The notes: generated by a model not told the origin, from the sequence alone. A DNA stretch of 64,000 nucleotides from an uncultured Coriobacteriales bacterium (GCA_934654475.1 CAKUFZ010000002.1:86-64085), one strand, 5' to 3'; positions 8,991 to 37,675 are shown, counted from the first letter of the stretch. Numbers and translations: made by a program.

Positions 8991-9683
8991 CTAGGCTGCA
9001 TCGTTGGACTGTTCAGCATCAGGATCGCTCCTCAGGATACGCACGCCCCTCACGACATAGATGAGGGCGGCCGCGACGGAAAGAATGCAACCGACATAGA
9101 CAAGCCAGATACCCATGCTCGTCGTGGCGGCTCCAAAGCCGGGAAGGAAAGAGCATTCGAAAAGGTTGAGACCGGGCATGGGGAAGAGGTCGAAGAGCAG
9201 TACGGAAAAGCCTGCCATGAGAATGAACGTGCAGGCCTTGCCGGTGTAGCACACGTCGGGAATGCGCCCGTGCTTCTTCATGAGAACGGCTCCGCCCACA
9301 AACAGCAGCGCATCGCGCGTCACCAGGTAGCAAACGGTCCAGGCGGGAATGCGTGAGGTGACGAGCAGGGCGATGACGCCGCTGAAGATGAGGACGCGGT
9401 CCATCACCGGGTCGAAGCGCTTACCGAAGAGGCTTACCTGCTTGAGGCGGCGCGCGAGCTTACCGTCGACCCAGTCGGTGCAGGCCGCGATGATGAAGAG
9501 CACCACGGCAAGAGTGTGATATTGCTCCTGGGGATAGAGCACTAGGAAACAGGCGGTGAGCACAAGACGGCACAACGTGATGAGGTTGGGAATCGTTGCC
9601 AACGTATGCAGGGGATTGTCGGGTGTACCGGGTTCTGCCGTTGGGTCGACAAGGCCCAAACCCCGTGTGCGATCTTTTGACAT
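8991..9683 (-). CDS. CDP-alcohol phosphatidyltransferase family membrane protein
   Basis: 230 aa and multi-pass hydrophobic. The family motif is DWVDGKLARRLKQVSLFGKRFDPVMDRV, matching D-x2-DG-x2-AR-x8-G-x3-D-x3-D. Confidence 0.8.
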   Translation of the reverse strand: MSKDRTRGLGLVDPTAEPGTPDNPLHTLATIPNLITLCRLVLTACFLVLYPQEQYHTLAVVLFIIAACTDWVDGKLARRLKQVSLFGKRFDPVMDRVLIFSGVIALLVTSRIPAWTVCYLVTRDALLFVGGAVLMKKHGRIPDVCYTGKACTFILMAGFSVLLFDLFPMPGLNLFECSFLPGFGAATTSMGIWLVYVGCILSVAAALIYVVRGVRILRSDPDAEQSNDAA

Positions 9684-9906
9684 GCTGCTCTCCCCTGCTT
9701 ATGCCTGGTAAAAATTCTTGGGATGCATTATACGAAAGCACCCTGCCCCTTTGGACGGGAACAATGCTGCCCTACGAAGTCAACGTGGGAAAAAATAGTA
9801 TTCTACCTGCGTTGGTGTACACATCCGTATACCAACCTTACGGTAGTGTCATACGCGGCCTACAGGCTTCCCACATTGGCTGGCGATGAGGGTGATGCCA
9901 AGAACC

Positions 9907-9938
9907 AAAAAAGCCTGGGACTTCAAGAAGTCCCAGGC
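9907..9938 (-). terminator. Rho-independent terminator downstream of tRNA-Pro
   Basis: Stem gcctgggac (9913-9921) / gtcccaggc (9930-9938) with an 8-nt loop. The A6 at 9907-9912 reads as a T6 tail on the minus strand. Confidence 0.85.
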
Positions 9939-9950
9939 TCTCAGTAAACA

Positions 9951-10027
<77 letters not shown>

Positions 10028-10144
10028 TGCTCAAGTGCGTAGGTAACTATATGTCATCTCTCCTTGGTTGGGCAAGGAAAAGCTTGCAATGTACCTGTTA
10101 TCCACATTTTTGACACAAGATGTCCGAGGAATGCGTTGGAACGC

Positions 10145-10924
10145 TTATCCGTCGGATGGGTCTTGCGCCTGTGCGACGACCTCTTTGGCGACGCGCAAAG
10201 AAAGCCCCGTAGCGAAGCCGCGCCCCATGAGAAAGCGAGCGATCTTCTCCGTTGGGTTCTTGGACGGTATCGCTCGCCTGCTGGCGGCAGCCAATGCCCG
10301 CTCGTACTCCCGATCCTGTGTGAGGCCGTCTAGGGCTTCTTCACCGGCATCTTCCAGCGAAAGGCCGAACCGTTCCAGTTCGCGAGAGATGCGAGCCTTG
10401 CCCCAGCCAGCCCGGGTTTTGGAATTGACAAAAGCCTGCGCATAGCGAGTGTCGCTAATCACACCACAGCGCCTGGCCTTATCCACCGCGGCTTGCGAAG
10501 CTTCTTTAGAGTACCCCTCTTGCACGAGCAGGTTGAGCACGTCCTTACCAGGGCGTTCCCTTGCGCTCAGCTTGGAACAAGCGCGCTCGAAGGCGGCCTG
10601 CTCCAAGGCCGTGCGGGCATATGCCTCGAAATCAGCCGCGTCTTCAAAGGTTTGGCGACCCGAGGCAAACACGCGTCGCGCGTTCGCGGGGATTTCCAGG
10701 TCATGGGTGGCCGTCGGGGTGGCGGCATCACCGTTGTGCGGCTCGTCGGCGAGCAGTTTGCAAAGAACGCGCCTGCCTTTGCAGGGGGATGAAGCATGTT
10801 CTTCCTCTTGCAGGTGCAGGCGCAAGGGTGCCGCCTGGGTATCAGCGGCACCCTTGCGTTGGCGTTGGTGGCGCTCAAGCTCGTCGAGAAGGCATCGCAC
10901 ACGCTCAACCTCGGTCTGCGCCAT
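10145..10924 (-). CDS. recX: Recombination regulator RecX with an extended N-terminus
   Basis: 259 aa located directly downstream of recA. RecX-type helical repeats are present (RYAQAFVNSKTRAGWGKARISRELERFGL..KIARFLMGRGF). Confidence 0.85.
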   Translation of the reverse strand: MAQTEVERVRCLLDELERHQRQRKGAADTQAAPLRLHLQEEEHASSPCKGRRVLCKLLADEPHNGDAATPTATHDLEIPANARRVFASGRQTFEDAADFEAYARTALEQAAFERACSKLSARERPGKDVLNLLVQEGYSKEASQAAVDKARRCGVISDTRYAQAFVNSKTRAGWGKARISRELERFGLSLEDAGEEALDGLTQDREYERALAAASRRAIPSKNPTEKIARFLMGRGFATGLSLRVAKEVVAQAQDPSDG

Positions 10925-10953
10925 GGCACACCTGTTTCAGGTTGAAAGAAAGC

Positions 10954-12030
10954 CTAAGCGTTCTCAACAGGCTCGCCCACAGGGGCGTCCTCATTGGGAA
11001 GCAGGCCGATGGCCACGCGGACCTTGTGGTCGATCTCGTTGCAAAGCTCGGGATTCTGCTTGAGGAAGTCCTTGGCCGCCTCGCGCCCCTGGCCGATGCG
11101 CTCCTGGCCGTAGGTGTACCACGAACCAGACTTGTTGACGATGTTCTCGTCAACGGCCATGTCAAGCACGCAGCCCTCTTTGGAGATGCCCTCTCCGTAG
11201 AGAATGTCGAACTCCGCCTGACGGAAAGGCGCAGCTACCTTGTTCTTCACGACCTTGACGCGCACGCGGTTGCCGATGACGTCGGTGCCCTTCTTGATGC
11301 TCTCGACGCGGCGGATCTCCAGGCGCACGGAGGCGAAGAACTTAAGCGCGCGGCCACCGGTGGTCGTCTCGGGGTTGCCGAACATGACGCCGATCTTCTC
11401 GCGCAGCTGGTTGATGAAGATGCACGTGGTCTTGGACTTGGAGAGCGAGCCAGCCAGCTTGCGCAAGGCCTGGCTCATGAGGCGAGCCTGAAGGCCCACG
11501 GAGCTGTCGCCGATCTCGCCTTCGATTTCGGCACGGGGCACGAGAGCGGCGACCGAGTCGATGACGATGACGTCGATGGCTCCGGAGCGCACAAGCATGT
11601 CGCAGATCTCAAGCGCGTCCTCGCCGGTGTCGGGCTGGGAGATGAGCACTTCGTCGATGTCGACGCCCAAGCGGGCGGCATAGCCCGGGTCGAGGGCGTG
11701 CTCGGCGTCGATGAACGCCACGACGCCGCCCATGGCCTGAGCCTCGGCGAGAATCTCCAACGACAGTGTCGTCTTGCCGCTCGACTCAGGGCCGTAAATC
11801 TCGATAATGCGGCCGCGCGGAACGCCGCCGATGCCAAGCGCTGCGTCGAGCGCCAAGGCGCCGGTGGGGATGGACTCCACCGACAGGGCGTCGGCCGCAT
11901 CGCCGAACTTCATGATGGATCCCTTGCCGAAGCGCTTCTCAATCTCGCTCGTCGTGAGCTCGATCATCTTGGTGCGCTCGTCGCCCTCGGTACGGGCGTG
12001 AATCTCCTTGGAGACTGAAGACTTTGCCAT
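10954..12030 (-). CDS. recA: Recombinase RecA
   Basis: 358 aa with [11 protein letters not shown], Walker [10 protein letters not shown] and IVIDSVAAL. Confidence 0.97.
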
Positions 12031-27944: not shown

Positions 27945-29525
27945 ATGGACAACGCACAAGAGCAGCGCAGGCGCTATCCCGTTGGCATCCAGACGTTCTC
28001 CAAGATTCGACAGGGCAACTATGTATATGTTGACAAGACGGCGCTTGTATACCGTCTAGCCAATGAGTCCGATGGGGCCTTCTTTCTGAGCCGTCCGAGA
28101 CGGTTTGGCAAATCGCTCCTCGTCTCGACGCTTCAGGCGTATTTTGAAGGCCGTCGTGACCTGTTTGGCGGGCTAGCGATTGAGCAGCTAGAGGGCGCTT
28201 GGGAGAGGTACCCGGTTATTCGCCTGGATTTGAGCACGGTCAAGACGCGCGACCCCGAGATTCTGCTCGACCTCCTTGACGCCGCCCTCTCATTCGAAGA
28301 GGCGCAGTGGGGCCGGGACAATTCGATGAAGACGCCCGGATCTCGTCTCATGGGGCTGATTCGCCGCGCCTATGCACAAACGGGCAGGCCCGTCGTCGTG
28401 CTCGTGGACGAATACGACGCCCCCTTGCTCAATGCGGTTGACGACCCGCAGAAGCTTCCTGTTTTCCAGGATGTCATGCGCGAGTTCTTTGCCCCGCTCA
28501 AGGCGTGCGATGAGTACTTGCGTTTCGTCTTCATCACAGGCATCACCAAGTTCGCCCAGCTCAGCATCTTCAGTGAGCTTAACAACCTCACAAACATCAG
28601 TATGCAACCCGAGTATGCAGCCATCTGTGGCATCACCGAAGAGGAGCTGGTCACACAGCTATCTCAAGACGTAGATGGACTGTCTGAGGCGCTGGAGATG
28701 GACAGTGCCGGAACCCTAGCTGCACTTAAACGCCAATACGACGGCTATCACTTCTGCGACCCGTCTCCCGACATCTACAATCCCTATAGCCTTCTCGGTG
28801 CCTTCCGAGACAACAAGATTGGTGACTATTGGTTTGTGACGGGAACGCCGACCTTCTTGGTCGACCTGCTAAAGAAGCAAGAATGGGATATCTCCACCCT
28901 CGAGAGCTGTCAGGCACGGGAGGAAGAGTTTGACGTTCCCGCCCAAAGAATGAGAACCCCTCTTCCCATGCTGTACCAAGGCGGCTACCTAACCATCAAG
29001 AGCTACGACGCTCTCACGCATACGTTTACTCTTGGCATCCCCAACGAGGAAGTCAGCCGTGGTCTCTCGAAAAGCCTGGTAGAGCACGCCTCACCCGGTG
29101 CCTTGCGTGAGCACTACAGTTTCCTTGATGCGTTTTCTACCGACCTGCGCACAGGTAACATCGACCACGCCCTAAAGGGAATGCGAGCATATCTTTCAAG
29201 CATCCCCTATCACCTGGGCTCACGCGATGAGCGGGGTTTCCAAACGAAGTTCTATCTCATCTTTGACTTGCTCGGCATCCAAATCGAGACCGAGTTCAAA
29301 ACGGCGACGGGCCGCATCGACGCCATAGTCAAGACCGACGACATCGTCTACGTCATGGAGTTCAAGTACAACAAGACGCCCGAAGAAGCCCTGGCGCAGA
29401 TTGATGCCAAAGGCTACGCGCTCCCCTTCTCCGCCGATGGCCGACAACTCGTGAAAGTCGGCGTCAACTTCTCCGAGAAAGAGCAGACCATCGATGGGTG
29501 GGTTGTTGGCAAAGAACAAAACTGA
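27945..29525 (+). CDS. AAA-ATPase-like N-domain plus PD-(D/E)XK nuclease C-domain protein (AAA-ATPase_like/PDDEXK_9 architecture)
   Basis: 526 aa with N-terminal YPVGIQTFSKIRQGNYVYVDKT..FFLSRPRRFGKSL and C-terminal GRIDAIVKTDDIVYVMEFKYNK. This pairing is characteristic of the family. Confidence 0.75.
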   Translation: MDNAQEQRRRYPVGIQTFSKIRQGNYVYVDKTALVYRLANESDGAFFLSRPRRFGKSLLVSTLQAYFEGRRDLFGGLAIEQLEGAWERYPVIRLDLSTVKTRDPEILLDLLDAALSFEEAQWGRDNSMKTPGSRLMGLIRRAYAQTGRPVVVLVDEYDAPLLNAVDDPQKLPVFQDVMREFFAPLKACDEYLRFVFITGITKFAQLSIFSELNNLTNISMQPEYAAICGITEEELVTQLSQDVDGLSEALEMDSAGTLAALKRQYDGYHFCDPSPDIYNPYSLLGAFRDNKIGDYWFVTGTPTFLVDLLKKQEWDISTLESCQAREEEFDVPAQRMRTPLPMLYQGGYLTIKSYDALTHTFTLGIPNEEVSRGLSKSLVEHASPGALREHYSFLDAFSTDLRTGNIDHALKGMRAYLSSIPYHLGSRDERGFQTKFYLIFDLLGIQIETEFKTATGRIDAIVKTDDIVYVMEFKYNKTPEEALAQIDAKGYALPFSADGRQLVKVGVNFSEKEQTIDGWVVGKEQN

Positions 29526-29734: not shown

Positions 29735-31630
29735 CTACCTGTACTTTAAGCCTCCAAGCAAACCCTTCTTGAAGCGCTTGACCTCATTCATGAAGGGCTC
29801 GTACCCATGCTCTACGCCCAGTTTTGCCATCTCGTAGCCTCGCTCGATAGCCCCGTCGCCGGGATTGCGCATTGTTTCGTCGTATTCAAGCAAGAGAGTC
29901 ATCTGAGCAAGGTCGAGATTGTCCGAATCCCCTTGTTCGATTTGTTTGAGACTTGCATTGGCATCTGAACCCAACGCTCGGCGCGCCCACTGGCGAGAAG
30001 CGCTCTCGTTTTCACATACAAGAACAAGCATGGCAGCAGTCACGGGGTCGGGACGCATGGACCAAGATTCCTCCAGGAACCGCACTGACCTCCTCTTGTA
30101 TTCTGCCGACAACGAGGAATCTTCTCGAGACAGTTGGGCGCTGAGGCGAAAGTAGCAGTAGCCTTTTGTAAACGCGCATGCAGCAAGGGTATCGTCCAGC
30201 CCGTCAAGATCTTCGGACTTCAAAGTGTGCTGCAAATCACCGATGTTGTCGTTCTTGATTCGCTTAATCCAGCTTGTCAGCTCGTTGGCACGCACAATGG
30301 CGGGTTCATCTGCTCCGATGCCCTTTTCTGCAAGAAGCAGTATCTTCGACGCGCCCATGAATATCCTGAATAATGACGGGTCGAGCGTGCCACCACGACG
30401 GAAAGCAACGTCGAGCCAGAATGACATTGGGTCGTACTGCTCTGCGCCATCCATATTAGAGGTATACTGCATTACTGCCTTGCTTATCCTGTCTCCTTGG
30501 CCGTTGTATGCCTCAAACCACAAATCTTCATCGATATCAGTATGTCTGACGGGGGCCAAATCAAGACGAGCAAGCTTGTACATAACCTTCGATGTGAAAT
30601 TATCCGAAAGGCCGAACATTGCGCCGTGCGCGAGCAGCCTACCCATCACGATGCTGGCCTTTGTGTCACTCCGAGGCACACCGACACCGAACAGATAGAT
30701 TGCAGCAACGCGAACGTATTCTTGCCAGTCCACGGTATCTTCTGTTGTCTCAAGGTCGATTGGTGCTTCAAGCAGGGCCTGATATCGCGCATTGGCACCT
30801 CGAAGAAACCTTGCATCTTCCAGAAGACCCTGGTCATCTCCTCCATTTGCGACGGCTTTGCGAAGCAACTCAACACCCTGTTGGCACTCGCTTTCATTTG
30901 CCTGCCTGTTGATGAGACAGCAGCCGTATTCAATCATGGCATCGACGTTGCCCGCGTCGGCGGCTTGCCGGAACCAGTTTTCGGCAAGGATGTACGACGA
31001 TGTTATGTCTTCACCCGGTTTGGCATAGTTACCGGATTGGTAATGAGCCCCCAAGCCGAGCATGGCCAGACCCCTTGAGCCGTTTTCGTCCTCCATAGTC
31101 GCGGCCTTCATGAGCAGCTCGTAGCCACGCTCCATGTCTGGCTCGACGGGATAGGGACTTTGGCTCGTTAGAATCATGCCATACTTGTAGCAAGCCCAAA
31201 CGCTGCCCATCTCAACGCCGCGCTCCAACAGGCGGCAGCCCTCGTCCGGGTTTCGCTCAACGCCCCAACCGTCAAAATAGCATAGGGCGAGGTAGTAGCA
31301 TGCCGCACCGACGTGCCAGCGCTCATTTTCGGATGCAGGCTCAGCCTCGCTGGCTCGGCGCAAATGCGTTATATAGGCGTTCTTATCAACGGGAATCTCT
31401 GAGTAAAACCCGTCGAACATAAATGCATACCTGTAGTTGCCCTCAATCGATCCCTTCTGCGCAGCAAGGCCCAACAAGCAACGAACTTTTGCCAAATCTT
31501 GCCCAATCAAGCCCTCGTCGTATTGGCTCTTTATGGAGCGCGCCTCAGAGAGCAGCTTGTCTGGTTCCATGTTTTCATGTTCGGCCTTAAACCCATGCAG
31601 GTTGTATACGTCGAGGTATGAGTCATCCAT
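29735..31630 (-). CDS. Sel1-like (TPR-class) repeat protein; candidate immunity or adaptor protein of the upstream toxin
   Basis: 631 aa with several Sel1-type repeats (AACYYLALCYFDGWGVERNPDEGCRLLERGVEMGSVWACYKYG; AENWFRQAADAGNVDAMIEYGCCL; AAIYLFGVGVPRS). It starts 11 nt after the toxin-like gene. Confidence 0.7.
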   Translation of the reverse strand: MDDSYLDVYNLHGFKAEHENMEPDKLLSEARSIKSQYDEGLIGQDLAKVRCLLGLAAQKGSIEGNYRYAFMFDGFYSEIPVDKNAYITHLRRASEAEPASENERWHVGAACYYLALCYFDGWGVERNPDEGCRLLERGVEMGSVWACYKYGMILTSQSPYPVEPDMERGYELLMKAATMEDENGSRGLAMLGLGAHYQSGNYAKPGEDITSSYILAENWFRQAADAGNVDAMIEYGCCLINRQANESECQQGVELLRKAVANGGDDQGLLEDARFLRGANARYQALLEAPIDLETTEDTVDWQEYVRVAAIYLFGVGVPRSDTKASIVMGRLLAHGAMFGLSDNFTSKVMYKLARLDLAPVRHTDIDEDLWFEAYNGQGDRISKAVMQYTSNMDGAEQYDPMSFWLDVAFRRGGTLDPSLFRIFMGASKILLLAEKGIGADEPAIVRANELTSWIKRIKNDNIGDLQHTLKSEDLDGLDDTLAACAFTKGYCYFRLSAQLSREDSSLSAEYKRRSVRFLEESWSMRPDPVTAAMLVLVCENESASRQWARRALGSDANASLKQIEQGDSDNLDLAQMTLLLEYDETMRNPGDGAIERGYEMAKLGVEHGYEPFMNEVKRFKKGLLGGLKYR

Positions 31631-31641
31631 AGCATGCTCCT

Positions 31642-33252
31642 TTACAATTTGGACCCGAGGCTTATCTGACCGGGGAAAGAGATAATGCTTACTATCTTGC
31701 TATCGGGCAACATAATGTGGACTTTCGGGACAGGTTCGCCGGCCATGGCAACGCCAAGCACCTTGTTCGTTGGGACTTCGATGATGTGTGGCGTGCCTTC
31801 GCGCATGACCTTCCACGGTCCGGGGCACAAGTTGGTGAGTCCGATGTTCCCGCGCCCGTCGCCCACGCATCGAGCTATCACTTTTGCTGGGTCGCCTGGC
31901 GAGGTCAAAACGCCACCCTTCCCGAGGGGAAGGATGCGGTTGCCAATCATGGTGTCGAGGATGATGTCGTGTTTCTGCGCTACATCTGATAACTTCTTGA
32001 TGATCTCGTCGCGCGTCCCTTCCGCAGAGATGAGATCGCTATGGGGAATATTGCCGTGAATAATAGACGGTATAAGCTGCATGGTCCCGTTGTGACAATC
32101 GTGCGGCGTCAATCCCTCGGCTTTCAGAAACTCTTTAACATCGCTTTGAGTCTGGAACCAATCGTACCCCCTATCCTGCATGAATGCCACAGCACGCGCT
32201 GCAAGGTCTGGCGACAGGCAGGATTTCCCAGAAGAGGAATCAAGCATCTGTTTGTATAGCTGCCTATAGTTCTCCCCACGGTCGCCTGTTACCTTGTCAA
32301 GCTTGAACTCACCTTTAGCAAGGTTCCCCGAGAATACAAGGTACCCGTCTTGAAACCGTATGTCTATCGGGCCGTACTGTTGCTCGATTTGCCCCCAGGT
32401 AAGACCCTCAGGGTTGGACTGCGAGGGCACAAAGTTACGGTCGGGTGACCACGTTCCGCTATACGTTGAGTCTGGGCTGTCGCAAGGGTTGCCGGAAGGA
32501 TCAATCCATGTTCCACCCGTTTTGGGCATGTGCGGCGTGATTCCCAAAGACGCGCGAACAAGGTCGAGTTCCTGCGAAGACATGGATGCAATCTGGTCGG
32601 CATAGCCTTGAATGACGCCGCCCACACGCAGCTTGTCCACATCGCTTATATTGCTTGAGATAGCCGGCGACGACACACCGGCCATCTCAAGCGCCGCGCT
32701 CCCCAGACCCCCGGGATGGTTGAGGGCCGAGGTAAGCGGGCTGACTAGGGAGAGCTGCAATGGAGTTCCATCGCGAGAAGCCTCTTGGGTGATTCCAGAA
32801 GAGGGTGTCTCGCCCATCCTAATCGCTGGGGTGTCCATCAATCCGGCGCCCTCGCGAATTTTCTCAACTGCGTGCTCAAGCGTCGCGCACCCTTCACTGC
32901 GCAAGGACTCGCACCGAGATTTCAAAGAAGACATATTGCTTTCATATGTATGGGAAGCACCACTAAGAGAAGCGATTTCATTGTAGAGCTGCCTCGATGA
33001 GGAGCGAAGGCCATCGATCTGCCCTCTAATCTTGTCTCGCTCGTCTGCATCATCGGCCTTATCAAGCTTTCTTTCTAGCTCACGACATGCCGTCTCAGCG
33101 CTTTCGATCCTCTTCTCTAGTCCATCGATTGCCAATTGGGCCTCATGAAGAAGCTCTTTATTGGGTTGCAAGGGCGAGAAGTCAACGCCCCTCAATCCCT
33201 TCGCAAGCTCCTCCATCGCATCAAGACCGTCGAATACAATCGTTGTCCCCAT
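31642..33252 (-). CDS. Polymorphic-toxin-like protein: N-terminal coiled coil, central HNH/EndoVII WHH-like nuclease module (variant), extra C-terminal domain
   Basis: 536 aa. Residues 1-140 are helical/coiled. The segment IRFQDGYLVFSGNLAKGEFKLDKVTGDRGENY...GLTPHDCHNGTMQLIPSIIHGNIPHSD resembles the gyPdF...tgdR..D(F/Y)...tWHH...tMqLVp..iH....H layout of WHH-type toxin nucleases, with PHD in place of WHH. About 115 uncharacterised residues follow. Confidence 0.45.
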   Translation of the reverse strand: MGTTIVFDGLDAMEELAKGLRGVDFSPLQPNKELLHEAQLAIDGLEKRIESAETACRELERKLDKADDADERDKIRGQIDGLRSSSRQLYNEIASLSGASHTYESNMSSLKSRCESLRSEGCATLEHAVEKIREGAGLMDTPAIRMGETPSSGITQEASRDGTPLQLSLVSPLTSALNHPGGLGSAALEMAGVSSPAISSNISDVDKLRVGGVIQGYADQIASMSSQELDLVRASLGITPHMPKTGGTWIDPSGNPCDSPDSTYSGTWSPDRNFVPSQSNPEGLTWGQIEQQYGPIDIRFQDGYLVFSGNLAKGEFKLDKVTGDRGENYRQLYKQMLDSSSGKSCLSPDLAARAVAFMQDRGYDWFQTQSDVKEFLKAEGLTPHDCHNGTMQLIPSIIHGNIPHSDLISAEGTRDEIIKKLSDVAQKHDIILDTMIGNRILPLGKGGVLTSPGDPAKVIARCVGDGRGNIGLTNLCPGPWKVMREGTPHIIEVPTNKVLGVAMAGEPVPKVHIMLPDSKIVSIISFPGQISLGSKL

Positions 33253-33283: not shown

Positions 33284-33562
33284 TTAGCAGCTTTCCAGAA
33301 TGTGTCCTCCTTCTTCAAAGCAATCGGCGGAATAGAGCAGTTGCTTCTCGACTGAACCCGCATCGGGAAGTGCGTTCATAATGTTATCGAGGTAGTTTTT
33401 AAGAGCAGCAAGTGCGACAAGACCTTCCCTAAAAGGCATTACAGTCTCCGCGGCATCCACAAGCCCTTTTGCAACACTACAGGTTGATTCGAGATCCTTG
33501 GCGAATTTGTCTACGGTTTGGGCGACCTCACGGATACCTTCGACATCCCACGTTATGCTCAT
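33284..33562 (-). CDS. Small (92 aa) predicted helical protein, unknown family
   Basis: The ATG at 33562 is preceded by a strong RBS, aaggagg, 6 nt upstream. The sequence MSITWDVEGIREVAQTVDKFAKDLES... has helix-favouring composition. No WxG motif is present. Confidence 0.6.
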   Translation of the reverse strand: MSITWDVEGIREVAQTVDKFAKDLESTCSVAKGLVDAAETVMPFREGLVALAALKNYLDNIMNALPDAGSVEKQLLYSADCFEEGGHILESC

Positions 33563-33601: not shown

Positions 33602-33871
33602 CTATGCGATGCCGGCACCCGCCTCCAGAGCGTCGGCTGCCTTGTTCAAATTCACGCACGCCGCCTCTGTCAAATCGGTTGACGACTTAATGGTGAGGTC
33701 GATTTGGTCGCAGACTTCTAGAATTTTGTCATAAGCAGGACATTCAAACATGTCCCCCAACCCCTCGGCAGCTTGCTTGAAATTTTTTGCCATATCGGAA
33801 ATCTCGGGCATTATCGTCGAGAGTGCCGAGGCAAGGTCGCGTATTTCTTGCGGCTCAACTGTAGCTGGCAT
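33602..33871 (-). CDS. Small (89 aa) helical protein, WXG100-superfamily/EspC-like by size and composition
   Basis: The ATG at 33871 is preceded by ggag. The sequence is MPATVEPQEIRDLASALSTIMPEISDMAKNFKQAAEGLGD...LNKAADALEAGAGIA. It resembles a helix-turn-helix hairpin with a central G-rich turn. The family call is inference. Confidence 0.5.
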   Translation of the reverse strand: MPATVEPQEIRDLASALSTIMPEISDMAKNFKQAAEGLGDMFECPAYDKILEVCDQIDLTIKSSTDLTEAACVNLNKAADALEAGAGIA

Positions 33872-34094
33872 ATTGATGCTCCGTTCTATCGTCAACGCCT
33901 GTTCCGTAACGTTCCAAAATCTGGCAGAACCCCTCGGTCTGTTCTCTTGCCTCCTCAATCAACTCAAGCATCGGCTTCACCTTGTTTTCTTGGAATTGCT
34001 CCGCATACCTATCCTGCCAAGCTGCTTCCGCTTTACCCCAAATGTTTCGGATGTCCCCCTCCAGGCCCAAAAGCTCTTCACCTACCAAAGCCAT
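33855..34094 (-). CDS. Small (79 aa) helical protein overlapping both neighbours
   Basis: The ATG at 34094 lies 10 nt upstream of the stop of the FtsK-like ATPase gene, and the gene end overlaps the next start by 17 nt. The sequence is LGLEGDIRNIWGKAEAAWQDRYAEQF.... Confidence 0.5.
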   Translation of the reverse strand: MALVGEELLGLEGDIRNIWGKAEAAWQDRYAEQFQENKVKPMLELIEEAREQTEGFCQILERYGTGVDDRTEHQYASYS

Positions 34095-37000
34095 TCCGAC
34101 CCATCCCTTTCGTCTTGACCGGTTGGTGAAAAGCTGCCCGGGAGTGCGGCAGATTCTTTGGAATCCGGCTCAGTCTCTAAGGGTTTTGCCACCTCGAGAG
34201 GTATGGTCTTGGCCACAGTCTCAACTACGTAAGGTCTGAAGAAAAACTCATGGCCGCTTGGGGTGTGATACACCATCTTGATTTTTGCCTCTTCGGGTTG
34301 GAGCGACGACGCGTTTGATTGCATGCCGATGCTCACCAGCTTCATTCGATCGGCATGCGTCGCAAAACGATGAGCAAAAAGTTCCGCCATATCCAATCCC
34401 CTTGCACCGAGAACTTTGTTGAGGTTTGGAACGGACGTAGAGAGCAAGCATATATGGACGTTGTTCAATGGCCCCCATTGAATCACACGGGCTATCAGCT
34501 CGCGTGCATCATCGGGCGAAGTCTTCGCTTCTTCGCTCTGACCTTTCTGGTGGTTTTCATATCGCACCATTGCCGCGCTTAAGGTGCTAACGCTGCTCGG
34601 CTGTTTTTTCTGCATTGACCTCTCAAACTCATACTGTGCCCTACTCATTTGCTGGCTCAGCTGCTCAAGACCCAAAACAACGATGAGCACGGGTGTTGAG
34701 GAGGCGAGATTACCCTCTTCAGCCCGACGGAAGAGATTGGCAATGGATGTTAAGTCGGTCATCTCTTCATAGTTGGGGAATACATCTCGAAGCGTCTGCC
34801 ATTTTGTTTGCGCAAAGCGCCAAGTCGGGTCGTTCTCAGGGGCAACGACAACGACACGATATCCAAGGCCCTGCTTCGAACAGGCTCCGATGATGGTCGT
34901 CTCCACCAAGTCGAAGGCAAGGTTCATCTCCGGATCAAGCACAAAGATGTTTTGTCCAATATTGCTGTTCAACGCGATTCGCAGGGTGGGATCAACAAAA
35001 CTCGACTTTGATCCTATAGGAACAAGACGAGAGCCCATGATATCAGTAGTCATTCGCTGACAATACTCGGTCCATGTAGGAGCGTCACGGCGAGTCGCAT
35101 CAAGATATTCAAATCTTTCATCCCAAGCTTTGCATGCATCGCCCAAACTTGCCCTGATCCTTTCGTTCGATGCGCACATCGCTTTGTCTTCCACGCATCT
35201 GGTGACACAGCGTATAGGCTTATGCCCGCCATGTTGGATGTAAGCATCGCCCTTCCCTAGAATCTCGAGGTCGGAAGAGTAAGTGGACGAAACCATCGCA
35301 CAAGGCTCTTGCCCGTTGGTGCCCCATGCCAAAAGCACGCGATTCGTCATGTTCGTCTGTACTGTCTTTTCGCCAAGCGCTTGAAGATTTGGGCCGTCTG
35401 TAAGACTCTGGTCGGCGATAAGGACATGCATGCCGTAAGCGCGGCATTCCTTAATCAGGTTCTGAAACTTGCGACTGTAGTTTGAGCTGTCATCTTTATT
35501 TAAGCGTGTGGCAGCCATAACGGCAGCCTGAGCATGAAACTCGTCAATTACCACCAAGAGGTACCGCATGTGCTCCAAGCCCAATTCGGGGTGCTTGGCA
35601 ACATAATAGTTGTATTCATTGATATCCCTGGCACTGGGGACGTTCTCCACCATGAGGGTCTGGCGATTTTTCATCTCGACATCATAAAGACGGTCGATGG
35701 CCACCTTTATGAAGTCCTCGGATGTATCGATTGCGACAAGTCCTATATGCGGGAAGCGCTGGTCAACATCCCTCAGACCCGCAAAATCGCTGCGCTTGTA
35801 ATCAATAATCCAGATTTCAAGGTCATCTGGAGAGTAGTGCGTGCAGGCAGCCTCGATGGCATTACGCAAGAAATACGTCTTACCGGACCCCGTCGTTCCC
35901 GTCACAATGCCATGTACATTCCCGCCCAGGTCAAAGCGCAACATGACGGCATTACCAAGCTCGTCGACAGCCACGGGCAGCTCTATGGCCTCTTCGATCT
36001 TGCTTACCTGCACATGAGCCAAATCAACAACTTCCGTCGGGTTGGCGGCATCACGCTTTTCCTGCGCCTTCTGCACGCTCAGCACAAGCTCGTCTGAAGT
36101 AAGGGCGGAATTGATGGGGTTGATGGGCTTGCAGCCACGGCCGGGGATATCGATGAGGTATCGTGCGCGTCCAGCTTGCGGATCCCAGCTCTCTGTGATG
36201 TTCGTCATGCTTTCGCGCAAAGCTCGCAGTCTTTCGTCAAACTTCTCGTCACCTCGCAGAGCGCTGCCGCACGAGACGAGCACCTGCACTCCGAGCCGCT
36301 TGCCGTCTCTGACGAACGATTCGATGAGGTCGAGGGTCCTAGTTCCAAAATGCTTGTTGGATAAGTCGTTTATCACAACAATCGTCTGCGGAATCGCCTT
36401 CACTGCATTGGCCCGCGCGTTGTATTTTCGCAGGCTTCCAAAAGACGCAATGGCAGGGCCAAGGTCTCCTGTGCGGTTCTCGAGAACGGTATTCATCCTT
36501 CCCGTATCTTGCTCAGTCGAGGCGACCTTAATGATGGTGTCCTCCCGGCGCTCGATACGGGATGACAGGTCGGCAAGCTTTCCCAAAGAGAGGCCGGCGT
36601 TTGTGGGGTCAAGCCAGTAAACCTCGAGGCCGCCCAAGGGCGTGCAACGGATGGCCGTGGACACAATGGCTCGCATCCAGGCGAGTGCCGCCTCTTTGTC
36701 GTTGTCTACCGTGAACCAGCATCCCTGGAGGTTGTCCCAATCAAACGAATAGGGTACGTAAAGGTCGACCCCAGCACCTTTTGCCTCGACCATGCCTATC
36801 GGGGTATACCGAGGAAACTCTGTGACTTGCCTGATTGCACCGAAGTCGGCGTTGCCCAGCACTTGCACGCGATTGGCAATCTCGGCACGACATTGATAAC
36901 CTATACGCTCGGACTCAGTATTTGATTCCAACCGCGCCCTAAGGTGTCGCCTGTCCTCCTCATACTTTGTCTCCAGGTTGCGAAGCTCCCTTGCAATGGC

Positions 37001-37675
37001 CTGAGATGCCGATGTGTCAATCGCTTGGGCATCCGCACGCCGCCGCGCGTCCCTCTCCGCCTCGGCATGCTTTGCGCTCCATTCGTTTTGCAGCACACGT
37101 TGGCGCTTCTCCGCATCGGCTTGCATCGAACGCTCATCTCGATCGATGCGTTTCTGCTCATCTTGCACCATAGCCTTCAGCAAAGAGCACGCCTCATCAC
37201 GCTGCATTGTCCCTTTGAGGTGGAAGAGGCGCTTGAGCCACGTCAAAAAAGATATGTCAGCCATTTGAGCCAGAAGGACTTCAAGCTCTGAATCGGAGGT
37301 GTTTCTTGCGTCTTGAATATGTTTCGGCCATATGGGGGTGTTCGCAAGGTCACCCGGGATGCGTGCAAGGACCCTGGAACAGCGGTCTCGACGATCTTGC
37401 ACGGCACGACGCTCACTCTCAATCTCTGTTGAGAGTACTTGGAGACGAGCGTTGTATTCCCTATCAATCTCGGCAACGCCCTCAACCTGAGGATGCGCCA
37501 GCCGAGCGGCAAGGCTCGCCTCGATGCACTCTGCCTCGCGCTTGCGTCTCATGCAGTCGCTGCGCCTCTCCTCGTATTCCCTTGTGAGGCAATCGAGCCT
37601 TAACTGTCCGTCGTCTGACGCCGTTGCAAAGCCATCGATGCGCGAGGCAATCATCTCGTAGAACTCATCGACCAT
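34082..37675 (-). CDS. Atypical FtsK/SpoIIIE-family ATPase: coiled-coil N-terminus, three P-loop-like modules with only the middle one intact, no TM segment
   Basis: 1197 aa. The middle module has Walker A GIVTGTTGSGKTYF, Walker B YLLVVIDEFH and an FtsK-type RAYGMHVLIADQS. The flanking modules keep beta-strand/Walker-B-like strings (TIVVINDLS; VLIVVLGLEQL) but have no GxxGxGK[ST]. The first roughly 300 aa are E/R/A-rich coiled coil. I saw no hydrophobic helix. Confidence 0.75.
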   Translation of the reverse strand: MVDEFYEMIASRIDGFATASDDGQLRLDCLTREYEERRSDCMRRKREAECIEASLAARLAHPQVEGVAEIDREYNARLQVLSTEIESERRAVQDRRDRCSRVLARIPGDLANTPIWPKHIQDARNTSDSELEVLLAQMADISFLTWLKRLFHLKGTMQRDEACSLLKAMVQDEQKRIDRDERSMQADAEKRQRVLQNEWSAKHAEAERDARRRADAQAIDTSASQAIARELRNLETKYEEDRRHLRARLESNTESERIGYQCRAEIANRVQVLGNADFGAIRQVTEFPRYTPIGMVEAKGAGVDLYVPYSFDWDNLQGCWFTVDNDKEAALAWMRAIVSTAIRCTPLGGLEVYWLDPTNAGLSLGKLADLSSRIERREDTIIKVASTEQDTGRMNTVLENRTGDLGPAIASFGSLRKYNARANAVKAIPQTIVVINDLSNKHFGTRTLDLIESFVRDGKRLGVQVLVSCGSALRGDEKFDERLRALRESMTNITESWDPQAGRARYLIDIPGRGCKPINPINSALTSDELVLSVQKAQEKRDAANPTEVVDLAHVQVSKIEEAIELPVAVDELGNAVMLRFDLGGNVHGIVTGTTGSGKTYFLRNAIEAACTHYSPDDLEIWIIDYKRSDFAGLRDVDQRFPHIGLVAIDTSEDFIKVAIDRLYDVEMKNRQTLMVENVPSARDINEYNYYVAKHPELGLEHMRYLLVVIDEFHAQAAVMAATRLNKDDSSNYSRKFQNLIKECRAYGMHVLIADQSLTDGPNLQALGEKTVQTNMTNRVLLAWGTNGQEPCAMVSSTYSSDLEILGKGDAYIQHGGHKPIRCVTRCVEDKAMCASNERIRASLGDACKAWDERFEYLDATRRDAPTWTEYCQRMTTDIMGSRLVPIGSKSSFVDPTLRIALNSNIGQNIFVLDPEMNLAFDLVETTIIGACSKQGLGYRVVVVAPENDPTWRFAQTKWQTLRDVFPNYEEMTDLTSIANLFRRAEEGNLASSTPVLIVVLGLEQLSQQMSRAQYEFERSMQKKQPSSVSTLSAAMVRYENHQKGQSEEAKTSPDDARELIARVIQWGPLNNVHICLLSTSVPNLNKVLGARGLDMAELFAHRFATHADRMKLVSIGMQSNASSLQPEEAKIKMVYHTPSGHEFFFRPYVVETVAKTIPLEVAKPLETEPDSKESAALPGSFSPTGQDERDGSEWLW

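Follow-up and report, generated by a model that had tools for sequence, protein, structure and literature searches.

A divergent WHH-family nuclease with a predicted FHA-like tail in a type VII-like ATPase cassette of a Coriobacteriales bacterium

The protein encoded at positions 31642..33252 (minus strand) of the window, i.e., of the whole 64,000-nucleotide stretch of DNA that was analysed, is a divergent variant of an already known toxin family and not an enzyme of a new kind. Judged by its relatives, its nuclease module belongs robustly to the WHH/Colicin-DNase His-Me-finger family. With a confidence only a little above even, the protein is regarded as an effector made of three parts, a helical targeting domain, a divergent WHH-family DNase, and an FHA-like tail, which would be the cargo of a type VII-like ATPase cassette.

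The nuclease module and its catalytic motif

The effector gene (P0001) is an open reading frame of 536 aa plus stop codon, according to both the ORF list and the translation. It has an ATG start codon with a ribosome-binding site, GGGAGAG, 6 nt upstream, and orthologues are found in four metagenome contigs which carry the same operon (92%, 90-93%, and 68% identity). The frame is real as the sequence-only reading had given it, and both strings quoted there occur in the translation, IRFQDGYLVFSGNLAKGEFKLDKVTGDRGENY as aa 298-329 and GLTPHDCHNGTMQLIPSIIHGNIPHSD as aa 380-406.

The nuclease module comprises aa 241-427 (31972..32532, minus strand) and was delimited by phmmer, profiles, and the AF2 model. 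Searches by word index for homologues, whether of the full protein or of aa 241-427, gave two close orthologues and nothing else, and relatives beyond these two were recovered only with exhaustive HMMER searching. The exhaustive phmmer search with aa 236-536 yielded 162 relatives, with E values down to 1e-17 against proteins which pass the Pfam WHH threshold at 43-68 bits. Among the 59 aligned relatives, 58 match Pfam WHH (PF14414) at E <= 0.01 (best 6e-19) and 56 match Colicin-DNase (PF12639) at the same level (best 9e-19). The query itself reaches 19.2 bits with PF14414 (E 1e-3; aa 388-405, 18 residues), below the gathering cut-off of 25.1, the orthologues P0003, P0004, and L023 are likewise sub-threshold, and PF12639 gives no query match at E <= 1. 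Against a custom profile built from 56 relatives, the query clade being left out, the query scores 115.5 bits over aa 241-415, end to end (profile positions 2-141 of 145). The profile search of the PDB leads to 8bd1 and 8h8a-c, which are WHH toxin domains of the Rhs type, and in the alignment W-H-E falls on W-H-H. With the full protein, phmmer against the PDB gave coiled-coil noise only, and Foldseek with the full-length model gave nothing significant, coiled-coil proteins dominating and FHA chains being among the matches. The resemblance to WHH domains is more than chance, because the relatives match Pfam WHH and Colicin-DNase and the query in turn matches the profile of these relatives. The WHH-type HNH/EndoVII module first proposed from the sequence therefore stands, with the curated Pfam match remaining sub-threshold.

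Along the module, the elements follow one another in the same order as in the known Tox-WHH/Colicin-DNase domains (RhsP CT 8h8a-c, 8bd1, and Y. pestis YPO3609-CT): an aromatic-P-x-F strand, an R..N element, a T-x-H-x dyad strand, a tMQLvP strand (TMQLIP in the query), and an H....H helix. Largely the same succession had been noted in the sequence-only reading. The fourth His, which is experimentally essential in the WHH toxins YPO3609 and RhsP, is kept in the query as H404. Conversely, the query departs from Tox-WHH by a clade-specific 25-aa insert at aa ~340-365, before the dyad strand, and by a module followed by a domain of 109 aa instead of standing at the protein end. Its delivery context is not Rhs/T6SS either, and its candidate partner is a 631-aa Sel1 protein, Sel1 not being among the known WHH immunity families, for which SUKH, Imm28, and Imm37 are named.

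The most evident divergence concerns the catalytic motif, as T-P-H-D stands in the query at the place of T-W-H-H in WHH toxins; the alignment to the solved WHH toxin domain 8bd1 bears out this earlier observation. It had also been stated that the name-giving residues are replaced. Pro383 and Asp385 are indeed real, but the loss of the second His is not special, since 117 of some 130 relatives, most of which are genuine members of Pfam WHH, carry W-H-E. Besides these 117 WHE motifs, the tally among relatives comprises three PHD and one each of PHE, WHD, and PHH. As W-H-E is found in the whole clade, only the change from Glu to Asp is lineage-specific at the second-His site; Asp also occurs in P0059, where the Trp is intact (WHD). 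At the Trp position, Pro is present also in P0004 and in P0143, the latter having an intact HH dyad, and the residue varies (R/C/F/I/L) in other relatives, mostly of an ATPase-linked clade. Altogether, five near-invariant family positions are altered in the query, namely, W383P, E385D, P305L, G406D, and G407L. The query reads H-S-D-L in place of the H-x-G-G found in at least 90% of relatives, and hence the "HxG" of the Tox-WHH signature "WHH, L, H, HxG" (Zhang 2012) is lost. According to the alignment, the replacement of Trp by Pro (common to P0004 and P0143), that of Glu by Asp, and the loss of the trailing HxG are the lineage-specific changes. No discussion of this large WHE clade of Pfam WHH members was found in the literature consulted.

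The core of the module (aa 380-406; 32035..32115, minus strand), identified by alignment and AF2, is predicted with a pLDDT above 90 as strands 381-385 and 390-395 followed by helices 396-399 and 407-427, a beta-beta-alpha-metal layout. H384 is assigned as the first dyad His, D385 as the general-base position, and H399 and H404 as the helix ligands; residue roles, including that of the second dyad His in activating water, are those of Zhang 2011. H384, H399, and H404, which are invariant in the 59 aligned sequences, would hold the catalytic metal of the DNase module, and Asp385 (Glu in the clade) would replace the water-activating second His of W-H-H. A comparable metal finger of the H-N-H type, together with a co-transcribed and tightly coupled downstream protein, is known from the DNase-immunity pairs of colicins E7 and E9. 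The present module differs in its much shorter spacing, the first helix His coming 15 residues after the dyad His, in its candidate partner, a large repeat protein, and in the uptake/translocation domains, which are unrelated.

From the residues that are conserved, the nuclease module is probably catalytically active. The sequence-only reading had left an active variant and an inactivated module side by side, and the latter is judged the less likely of the two because H384, H399, N401, and H404 are kept, in all four members of the query clade, because the module evolves under purifying selection (dN/dS 0.13-0.18), and because the AF2 confidence is high. A degenerate pseudo-nuclease, in which catalysis is lost and the fold serves as a scaffold for DNA or protein binding with the FHA-like tail and Sel1 as functional partners, would account for a Pfam WHH match which is sub-threshold and confined to 18 residues, for the substitution of five near-invariant positions including the Trp, the Glu, and the GG after the last His, and for the unusual presence of extra domains behind a toxin module. 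It is nevertheless considered improbable, given that Asp for Glu is a conservative change seen next to an intact Trp, that Pro for Trp is seen next to an intact HH, and that the family profile is matched over its whole length.

The C-terminal extension and the N-terminal hairpin

In the query, 132 aa follow the last catalytic His, as against 10-20 aa in most relatives, so that the module is, as had been noted at the outset, not at the extreme C-terminus. The extension proper (aa 428-536, 109 aa; 31645..31971, minus strand) is confined to P0001-P0004 and the L023 allele of the same operon. A Pfam search of aa 422-536 gave nothing at E <= 1, including the FHA family PF00498, a sequence-profile search of the PDB with the tail gave chance matches only, and the tail model found nothing in the BFVD viral library. 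P0121, a repetitive SdrD-B/CarboxypepD_reg protein, matches the tail six-fold, and this match was rejected as compositional.

AF2 predicts ten strands in the tail, the same in the full-length model (pLDDT 50-80) and in a domain-only model (pLDDT 68) made from an alignment of four sequences. The top Foldseek neighbours in the PDB are the FHA domain of APLF and FHA1 of Rad53, with TM scores of 0.55-0.60, a probability of up to 1.0, and E values of 0.05-0.1, together with SMAD MH2 and IRF domains. The FHA fold is that of an eleven-strand beta-sandwich. On these models the tail is predicted to be a non-catalytic FHA-like beta-sandwich. Of the residues by which FHA domains bind phosphothreonine (G-R, S-x-x-H, and N), the canonical S-x-x-H is absent, C-P-G-P-W being found in the query and S-P-E-R-W in P0004; by mapping of the strand register, we infer that VGDGR and PTNK could supply the FHA Arg and Asn. 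The conserved loops (VGD.. and GL.N..P..WK) would sit where FHA domains bind phosphopeptides, and the tail may provide a link from the effector to the kinase of Hanks type and the PP2C phosphatase encoded in its operon or, alternatively, to the Sel1 partner.

The possibility that the last 109-115 aa form a second toxic or enzymatic domain, which would make the protein the two-headed effector that the sequence-only reading had entertained, draws on the strong conservation of the tail, with a dN/dS of 0.08-0.12 and 96% identity to L002. Such conservation is not accompanied by any match to a catalytic family or, more generally, to a Pfam family, a PDB sequence, or a viral fold. In the model the tail folds as a small beta-sandwich, the structures nearest to it being interaction domains, and its invariant residues (Gly, Pro, Leu, Val, Trp, and Lys) include none of catalytic type. 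A second enzymatic head is consequently given hardly any credence, and the tail is taken further as a putative interaction domain.

The N-terminal domain (aa 1-140; 32833..33252, minus strand) is modelled by AF2 as a long helical hairpin with helices 10-21, 32-65, and 69-135 (pLDDT 90-97), in keeping with the helical character that had been ascribed to it. It is the presumed docking domain for the small proteins and the ATPase described below. Pfam searches found no LXG or WXG match in the effector N-terminus, where only coiled-coil noise and a sub-threshold match to EAD9 (PF19962; aa 39-82) appeared; the latter lies inside the coiled coil and was set aside as noise. The resemblance to the N-termini of effectors of other cassettes is weak by non-iterative profile, 6-16 bits against a maximum of 5-10 for shuffled sequences, and after this control the link obtained by iterative jackhmmer was down-weighted. 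The linker which follows (aa 141-240; 32533..32832, minus strand) is predicted to be disordered at aa 144-166 (AF2 pLDDT below 50) and then to form short helices. A recombination breakpoint lies within it, at about aa 170-200: nucleotide identity to L003 falls from about window position 32750, and the block of high identity to L002 starts at 32643.

The ATPase cassette and the Sel1 gene

The effector gene is the last member of a cassette which begins with an FtsK/EccC-like ATPase and continues with three small WXG-like proteins, all on the minus strand. The ATPase (34082..37675; 1197 aa; FtsK_SpoIIIE 2.5e-15) has a coiled-coil head and one Walker A motif. A transmembrane (TM) helix is absent from all of six orthologues, each of which has a single Walker A. 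It matches NCBIfam EccCa, EssC, and EccCb with E values of 1e-16 to 1e-21, far below the cut-offs, and its database matches beyond a handful of orthologues are largely annotated as EccCa/EssC. The three small proteins are helical. The first, s1 (33855..34094; 79 aa, 60-75 aa in relatives), is assigned by orthology to s1 of L002 and of L006, a gene of 75 aa which precedes the ATPase in L009, and one of 67 aa in L025. The second, s2 (33602..33871; 89 aa), has orthologues across cassettes and resembles WXG100 proteins, with sub-threshold matches to PF06013 (E 0.003, profile positions 4-82 of 86) and TIGR03930 (E 0.03). The third, s3 (33284..33562; 92 aa as called in relatives), has a sub-threshold match to DUF6507 and orthologues in L002, L006, L007, L009, L024, and L025. 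As a set, s1-s3 and the ATPase are orthologous in L002, L003, L006, L007, L009, L023, and L025. The operon also encodes a membrane Hanks (Ser/Thr) kinase, a PP2C (PPM) phosphatase, and an AAA+ ATPase. The FtsK/EccC-like ATPase would be the dedicated motor of the cassette, and by position and analogy the hairpin of aa 1-140 may dock the effector, with s1-s3, onto it.

The system is rare, since of 401 genomes taken as a sample of the phylum 2 have the ATPase, and it sits in a low-GC island (52% against 62-64%). The host of the cassette is a gut Coriobacteriia genome. No further loci were found in scans of genome contigs and of metagenome contigs, nor were orphan toxin or Sel1 cassettes found in the genome of the window. 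All other nuclease-bearing cassettes carry the WHE clade. In L025, an effector of the same layout has instead a papain/C39-like C-terminal domain (Pfam E 0.003, sub-threshold), with a 170-aa gene 8 nt downstream; this arrangement would match polymorphic-toxin organisation, though the homology of the N-terminal domains between cassettes is weak.

Among known systems, several features are shared with the LXG toxins of T7SSb and their Lap partners. These are a helical N-terminal domain joined by a linker to a C-terminal toxin, two or three partner genes for helical proteins of about 90 aa immediately upstream, an FtsK/EssC-type ATPase in the locus, a C-terminal half of the ATPase which co-varies with the downstream small genes as in essC variants (L023 allele), and a different toxin domain on a distant cassette. 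Tox-WHH domains are themselves known on WXG/LXG toxins of T7SS. However, the cassette shows no match to LXG (PF04740), TIGR04197-type, or Lap families, WXG100 being matched only by s2 and below threshold. Unlike its T7SSb counterparts, the ATPase has neither TM helices nor FHA domains and only one Walker A, genes for EssA, EssB, and EsaA were not found, and the FHA-like module is on the substrate and not on the ATPase. No FtsK/WHH system of this kind is described by Kaur et al. 2020.

In operon content, a close parallel is offered by T7SSc-T7SSj (Garrett et al. 2024, PMC11217815), especially the kinase- and phosphatase-bearing T7SSc/d/e, with which the operon shares the combination of an EssC-like ATPase, WXG-like proteins, a membrane Ser/Thr kinase, a PPM phosphatase, an AAA+ ATPase, and an FHA-type module. 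These new variants commonly carry kinases, PPM phosphatases, FHA domains, HNH toxins, and Lap-like WXG partner genes, and T7SSd occurs in Actinomycetota such as Olsenella (PMC11217815). Every described variant, however, has a membrane-bound ATPase with four NTPase domains, whereas the present one is soluble, and TsdH/TsdI-like and YukD-like components were not seen in a non-exhaustive search.

Downstream of the effector lies the gene for a 631-aa Sel1-repeat protein (29735..31630, minus strand; Pfam Sel1 1.3e-14). The two genes are tightly coupled, as the Sel1 start is 11 nt past the toxin stop and its own AGGAG site is overlapped by the TAA stop codon of the effector. The Sel1 protein has no predicted TM segment, and it is divided into an allelic, variable part (aa 1-420; 30371-31630) and a constant part (aa 421-631), with a dS relative to L003 of about 1.0 for the former and 0.04 for the latter. 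In the block formed by the C-terminal half of the toxin and Sel1, dS is 0.3-1.0 compared to an operon baseline of 0.06. Identity to L002, a distant lineage, amounts to 81-96% for the C-terminal half of the toxin and to 81% for Sel1, as compared to 33-62% for the system proteins. The C-terminal half of the toxin and the Sel1 gene are therefore a recombining block exchanged between diverged systems, and such exchange fits a toxin-partner pair.

A role of Sel1 in immunity is plausible because the gene travels with the toxin C-terminal half between diverged systems, and on sequence grounds the protein may be the most likely cognate inhibitor or immunity partner, cytoplasmic and translationally coupled to its target. 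The co-variation is not strict, since L023 joins the nuclease allele of L003 with the Sel1 allele of the window; strict toxin-Sel1 co-variation was rejected on a four-allele matrix which shows shuffled combinations, alleles being shuffled within the species. Ordinary WHH relatives carry classic genes in the downstream immunity position. In the cassette-linked relatives L007, L008, and L009, no same-strand gene follows the nuclease, which is odd for a secreted nuclease toxin.

Export or intracellular action

Export of the effector by a non-canonical type VII-like route, for interbacterial antagonism, is favoured by at most a narrow lean from an even balance. No export channel was found, because the ATPase is TM-less, because EssB/YukC (PF10140) and EccB (PF05108) are absent from the 96.6%-complete genome, and because the minimal cassette of L009/L010, which lies between hypF and hypC with an Xre-type HTH gene, has no membrane protein. 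These same features would be expected of a cytoplasmic anti-phage, anti-plasmid, or abortive-infection system in which nothing is secreted and the TM-less ATPase, s1-s3, and the nuclease act within the cell. The small proteins, the ATPase, or Sel1 would then keep the nuclease inactive, and a signal would release it through the phospho-switch of kinase, PP2C, and FHA-like tail; the Sel1 repeats, in turn, could be a variable sensor and not an immunity protein. Hypervariable repeat domains are typical of defence sensors. The lack of a downstream immunity gene in L007, L008, and L009/L010, the rarity of the system, and its low-GC island point in the same direction, as do the generic PADLOC matches of the ATPase (mad8, SspH, HerA) and of the kinase (mad6, PD-T4-6).

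On the other hand, PADLOC gave no match to a known defence system and left the nuclease, Sel1, and s1-s3 without any model match. The great majority of known WHH domains belong to exported polymorphic toxins, ordinary relatives keep their immunity-position genes, and a helical-hairpin effector beside WXG-like partner genes matches the layout of T7SS LXG/Lap substrates. Moreover, the papain/C39-like effector of L025 is also followed by a tightly coupled gene, and the wider matches of the ATPase are those of EccC/EssC. An intracellular defence role, including an inhibited nuclease and a sensing Sel1, is thus held to be unlikely, though it retains appreciable weight, and export remains the preferred reading. 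A more elaborate reading is entertained only tentatively. It holds that a type VII-like machine not described so far, with a soluble EccC-like ATPase, has the nuclease as its dedicated cargo, that Ser/Thr phosphorylation gates the release or export of the effector via the substrate-borne FHA-like domain, and that the WHE/PHD clade runs on a carboxylate in place of the general-base His.

Should the WHE and PHD proteins prove to be active, WHH-type His-Me-finger toxins will require a broader catalytic definition. The presence of a toxin module and an FHA-like domain beside a Hanks kinase and a PP2C phosphatase makes phospho-control of an effector directly testable, a theme which has recently been noted for new T7SS variants. 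The cassette, found in very few genomes, makes it less easy to tell secretion systems apart from systems of intracellular conflict. As the organism belongs to the same Coriobacteriia order as Arabiibacter, the ecological setting is likely to be interbacterial antagonism or defence within communities of this kind.

The nuclease module

The effector is encoded on the minus strand at 31642..33252 by an open reading frame with an ATG start and a 536-aa product, its coordinates being exact in the ORF list and translation. A Shine-Dalgarno sequence, GGGAGAG, lies 6 nt upstream of the ATG, and the TAA stop runs into the AGGAG site of the following gene, whose start lies 11 nt further on. Both motif strings picked out by the sequence-only reading are found in this frame, at aa 298-329 and aa 380-406.

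That reading had proposed a WHH-type nuclease module. Pfam WHH (PF14414) matches the effector only at aa 388-405, with 19.2 bits, under the gathering score of 25.1, and NCBIfam and PDB sequence searches return coiled-coil noise only. An exhaustive phmmer search with aa 236-536 against 1.84 billion representative proteins yielded 162 relatives (28 at E <= 1e-10). The alignments cover aa ~241-421, and the matching stretch is C-terminal in most relatives. At E <= 0.01, Pfam WHH is found in 58/59 aligned sequences (best 6e-19) and Colicin-DNase PF12639 in 56/59 (best 9e-19), the two models overlapping on one and the same module. A custom profile of 56 relatives, with the query's own clade left out, scores the effector at 115.5 bits over model positions 2-141 of 145 (aa 241-415), and Rhs WHH toxin domains of known structure (8bd1, 8h8a-c) are likewise retrieved by the family profile. 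Given the relatives' Pfam matches, this profile score and the Rhs domains retrieved, assignment of the module to the WHH family is robust at the sequence level. The proposed module was borne out as to family. The low Pfam score comes from divergence within a short model of 43 positions.

The family motif T-W-H-E aligns residue for residue with V-W-H-H of 8bd1. W-H-E is present in 117 of ~130 relatives with a recognisable motif, P-H-D in the query clade (P0001-3) and P-H-E in P0004, while R-H-E, F-H-E, I-H-E, L-H-E, W-H-D and P-H-H occur in one relative each. The replacement of WHH by PHD noticed earlier is therefore real, but the missing second His is not specific to the effector. The first His of the dyad is a metal ligand and the second directs the hydrolytic water (Zhang et al. 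2011); together with the W-H-E tally, these roles mean that the clade as a whole carries a carboxylate where the canonical general base would be, and Asp385 in place of the clade Glu is a conservative change.

The module is probably an active variant, as judged from sequence conservation and modelling. That it is a catalytically dead pseudo-nuclease appears improbable, since H384, H399 and H404 are invariant in 59/59 aligned sequences, dN/dS over the module is 0.13-0.18 (Nei-Gojobori, three pairwise comparisons) and the AF2 model, built from a 63-sequence alignment, has pLDDT above 90 for aa 241-427. In favour of a dead module are the lineage-specific departures from the family, namely the substitutions W383P, E385D and P305L and the absence of the G-G that otherwise follows the last His, an element included as 'HxG' in the Tox-WHH signature (Zhang 2012). 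In the AF2 model, strands at 381-385 and 390-395 lead into helices, a beta-beta-alpha layout. The fourth His, equivalent to H404, is needed in YPO3609 and RhsP, as established by mutagenesis.

The C-terminal tail

The nuclease module does not lie at the extreme C-terminus, as had been noted: 132 residues follow H404, compared with 10-20 in most relatives. Among phmmer-retrieved proteins this extension is shared only by P0001-P0004, and the fourth allele, L023, also has it. The tail (aa 428-536) matches no Pfam family, no sequence-level FHA support was found by PDB sequence-profile search, and a viral structure library gave no match. A repeated match to P0121 was set aside, P0121 being a repetitive SdrD-B/CarboxypepD_reg protein.

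In AF2 the tail forms ten beta-strands, the same in full-length and domain-only models (pLDDT 50-80 and 68). The top Foldseek matches in the PDB for the isolated tail are APLF (5w7w, 5w7x, 5e50), Rad53 FHA1 and an engineered FHA, with TM 0.55-0.60 and probability up to 1.0 but E-values of only ~0.05-0.3; the related SMAD-MH2 and IRF folds are also among the matches, and the same APLF chains appear with the full-length effector. By strand register, the invariant residues VGD, GL.N..P..WK and VLG.AM.G would fall on the phosphopeptide-binding loops of FHA domains; the canonical FHA S-x-x-H is missing. No part of the effector is under tighter constraint than the tail (omega 0.08-0.12), which is 96% identical to the otherwise distant L002 allele. 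The tail is best read, from the models, as a non-catalytic FHA-like interaction module. The two-headed effector suggested earlier is thus unsupported, the tail having no Pfam match and being FHA-like by predicted fold, and a second toxic head in this position is most improbable.

The surrounding cassette and its variants

Upstream of the effector gene, on the same minus strand, are encoded a 1197-aa FtsK/SpoIIIE ATPase (34082-37675) and three small helical proteins, s1 (33855-34094), s2 (33602-33871) and s3 (33284-33562). The best NCBIfam matches of the ATPase are T7SS EccCa, EssC and EccCb, all far below cut-offs, and beyond its orthologues many database matches of its motor are annotated EccCa or EssC. 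No TM helix is found in any of six orthologues, and all six have a single Walker A; the ATPase family (window, L002, L009, L013, L024, L025) has a ~300-aa coiled-coil head. It was found in 2/401 genomes sampled from the phylum. s2 matches WXG100 at a sub-threshold E of 0.003 and is the sole such match in the window genome (~2.0 Mb, 47 contigs), where EssB/YukC and EccB are absent. Further products of the operon are a Hanks kinase whose C-terminus is polytopic, a PP2C phosphatase and an AAA+ ATPase resembling ClpB. Across the operon region (~28000-52000) GC is 0.48-0.57 and the flanks have 0.62-0.66, a drop that suggests a horizontally acquired island.

The order ATPase, s1-s3, effector recurs in five other loci (L002, L003, L004, L005, L023), and in L006 s1-s3 precede the effector on a short contig that ends before a complete ATPase gene. 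Each of s1, s2 and s3 is orthologous across the compared cassette loci; s2 and s3 stand before P0006 and, at a contig end, s3 before P0018. A minimal cassette (L009:3446-9796, also L010), between hypF and hypC, consists of s1, a 1252-aa ATPase, s2, s3 and a WHE nuclease. Its nuclease, P0020, of the closest clade, is without the FHA-like tail; in L009 a divergent Xre-type HTH gene stands alongside the five genes, and kinase, membrane protein and downstream immunity gene are lacking.

Kinase, ATPase, s2 and s3 are present and the nuclease absent in L024 and in Arabiibacter massiliensis (G246, the genome encoding P0156), which belongs to the same order as the window genome; these systems (L024:13885-16519; L013 of G246, 9400-11250) also contain YARHG and VTT. 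Downstream in L024, in the nuclease's stead, are a 465-aa radical-SAM enzyme, a 37-aa ORF and a YbjN-like protein. G246 carries an 81-aa ORF and a ~370-aa acidic protein with the common C-terminal motif D-Y-x-[IV]-W-x-V-x-x-A-D-G. A distant cassette well represented in metagenomes (L025:5261-15752; ATPase cluster of 48 member sequences) encodes vWA, PP2C, s1, an 871-aa kinase, a 1113-aa ATPase, s2, s3 and a 365-aa effector; in having vWA, kinase and PPM together it recalls T7SSc. This effector is laid out like that of the window, with a helical hairpin and a G/A/T-rich linker, and its C-terminal domain resembles papain/C39 peptidases (Peptidase_C39_2, E 0.003, sub-threshold; GTCGLVSC...H). A 170-aa gene starts 8 nt after it, and a 54-aa gene also follows.

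The candidate Sel1 partner and the proposed mechanism

The gene downstream of the window effector encodes a 631-aa cytoplasmic Sel1-repeat protein. Beside it, on the opposite strand, lies an AAA-ATPase_like/PDDEXK_9 gene (27945-29525), as in L023; in two metagenome contigs (L003:13682-14704, L004) a DDE transposase (DUF772/DDE_Tnp_1) lies 3' of the Sel1 gene. Ordinary short WHE relatives have tight downstream genes in immunity position, for a 139-aa protein and a 151-aa DUF6985 protein; no same-strand ORF follows the nuclease gene in L007, L008 or L009. The start of the DUF6985 (PF22481) gene, L017:1346-1801, abuts or overlaps the stop of the 369-aa WHE toxin P0012, and this adjacency puts DUF6985 forward as a candidate immunity family for the clade.

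Nucleotide identity of the operon to L003, a close lineage, is 96-100%; it drops to 87-91% from ~32750 (toxin aa ~170-200) and to 74-83% over Sel1 aa 1-420, returning to 99% at the Sel1 3' end. Against a dS baseline of 0.06, the toxin C-terminal half reaches 0.3-0.4 and the Sel1 N-terminal part ~1.0. Since omega in the block is 0.11-0.16 despite the raised dS, the block represents imported allelic material, not relaxed selection. System proteins of the distant L002 are 33-62% identical; for the toxin C-terminal half the figure is 81-96% and for Sel1 81%, so the block has been exchanged across diverged systems. In a four-allele matrix, alleles are shuffled within the species: L023 combines the nuclease allele of L003 (99%) with the Sel1 allele of the window (98%). 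These patterns support functional coupling of the toxin C-terminal half and Sel1; Sel1 is a candidate immunity protein, a role that the mosaic data do not prove. The immunity families listed for Tox-WHH are SUKH, Imm28 and Imm37, with Sel1 not among them.

Inside this species-level lineage, L023 also differs at the ATPase C-terminal half and s1-s3, which form an allelic block of their own (77-89% amino-acid identity): L023:12000-14400 is 74-85% identical in nucleotides to window 36478-33282, against 96-99% for the rest of the operon. The block is reminiscent of the essC C-terminal variant modules known from T7SSb (cf. PMC5994694).

The best-supported reading, from sequence and models, is a polymorphic-toxin-like effector with a nuclease head, an FHA-like tail and a Sel1 neutraliser. 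Recognition by the EccC-like ATPase would go through the helical N-domain and s1-s3, toxicity would reside in the WHE/PHD His-Me-finger DNase, the tail may tie the effector to kinase/PP2C signalling or to Sel1, and Sel1 would neutralise the effector in the producer cell. This matches new T7SS variants that carry kinases, PPM phosphatases, FHA modules and vWA proteins, as well as AAA+ ATPases, HNH toxins and Lap-like partners (Garrett et al. 2024, PMC11217815). In those variants, however, every ATPase is membrane-bound, and the TM-less ATPase here favours the main rival, an intracellular conflict or defence system. Absence of the T7SS membrane core from the genome and minimal cassettes without immunity genes or membrane proteins speak for it too; PADLOC returned generic domain matches only on the operon. 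Such a system is a serious if rather unlikely alternative to a polymorphic-toxin-like effector.

What stands of the sequence-only reading is a WHH-family toxin module in effector position; the second toxin that it listed as one option gives way to an FHA-like tail. The effector is a member of a known toxin family, a new variant whose delivery or regulation context is unusual and rare; what is truly new lies mostly in the cassette around it.
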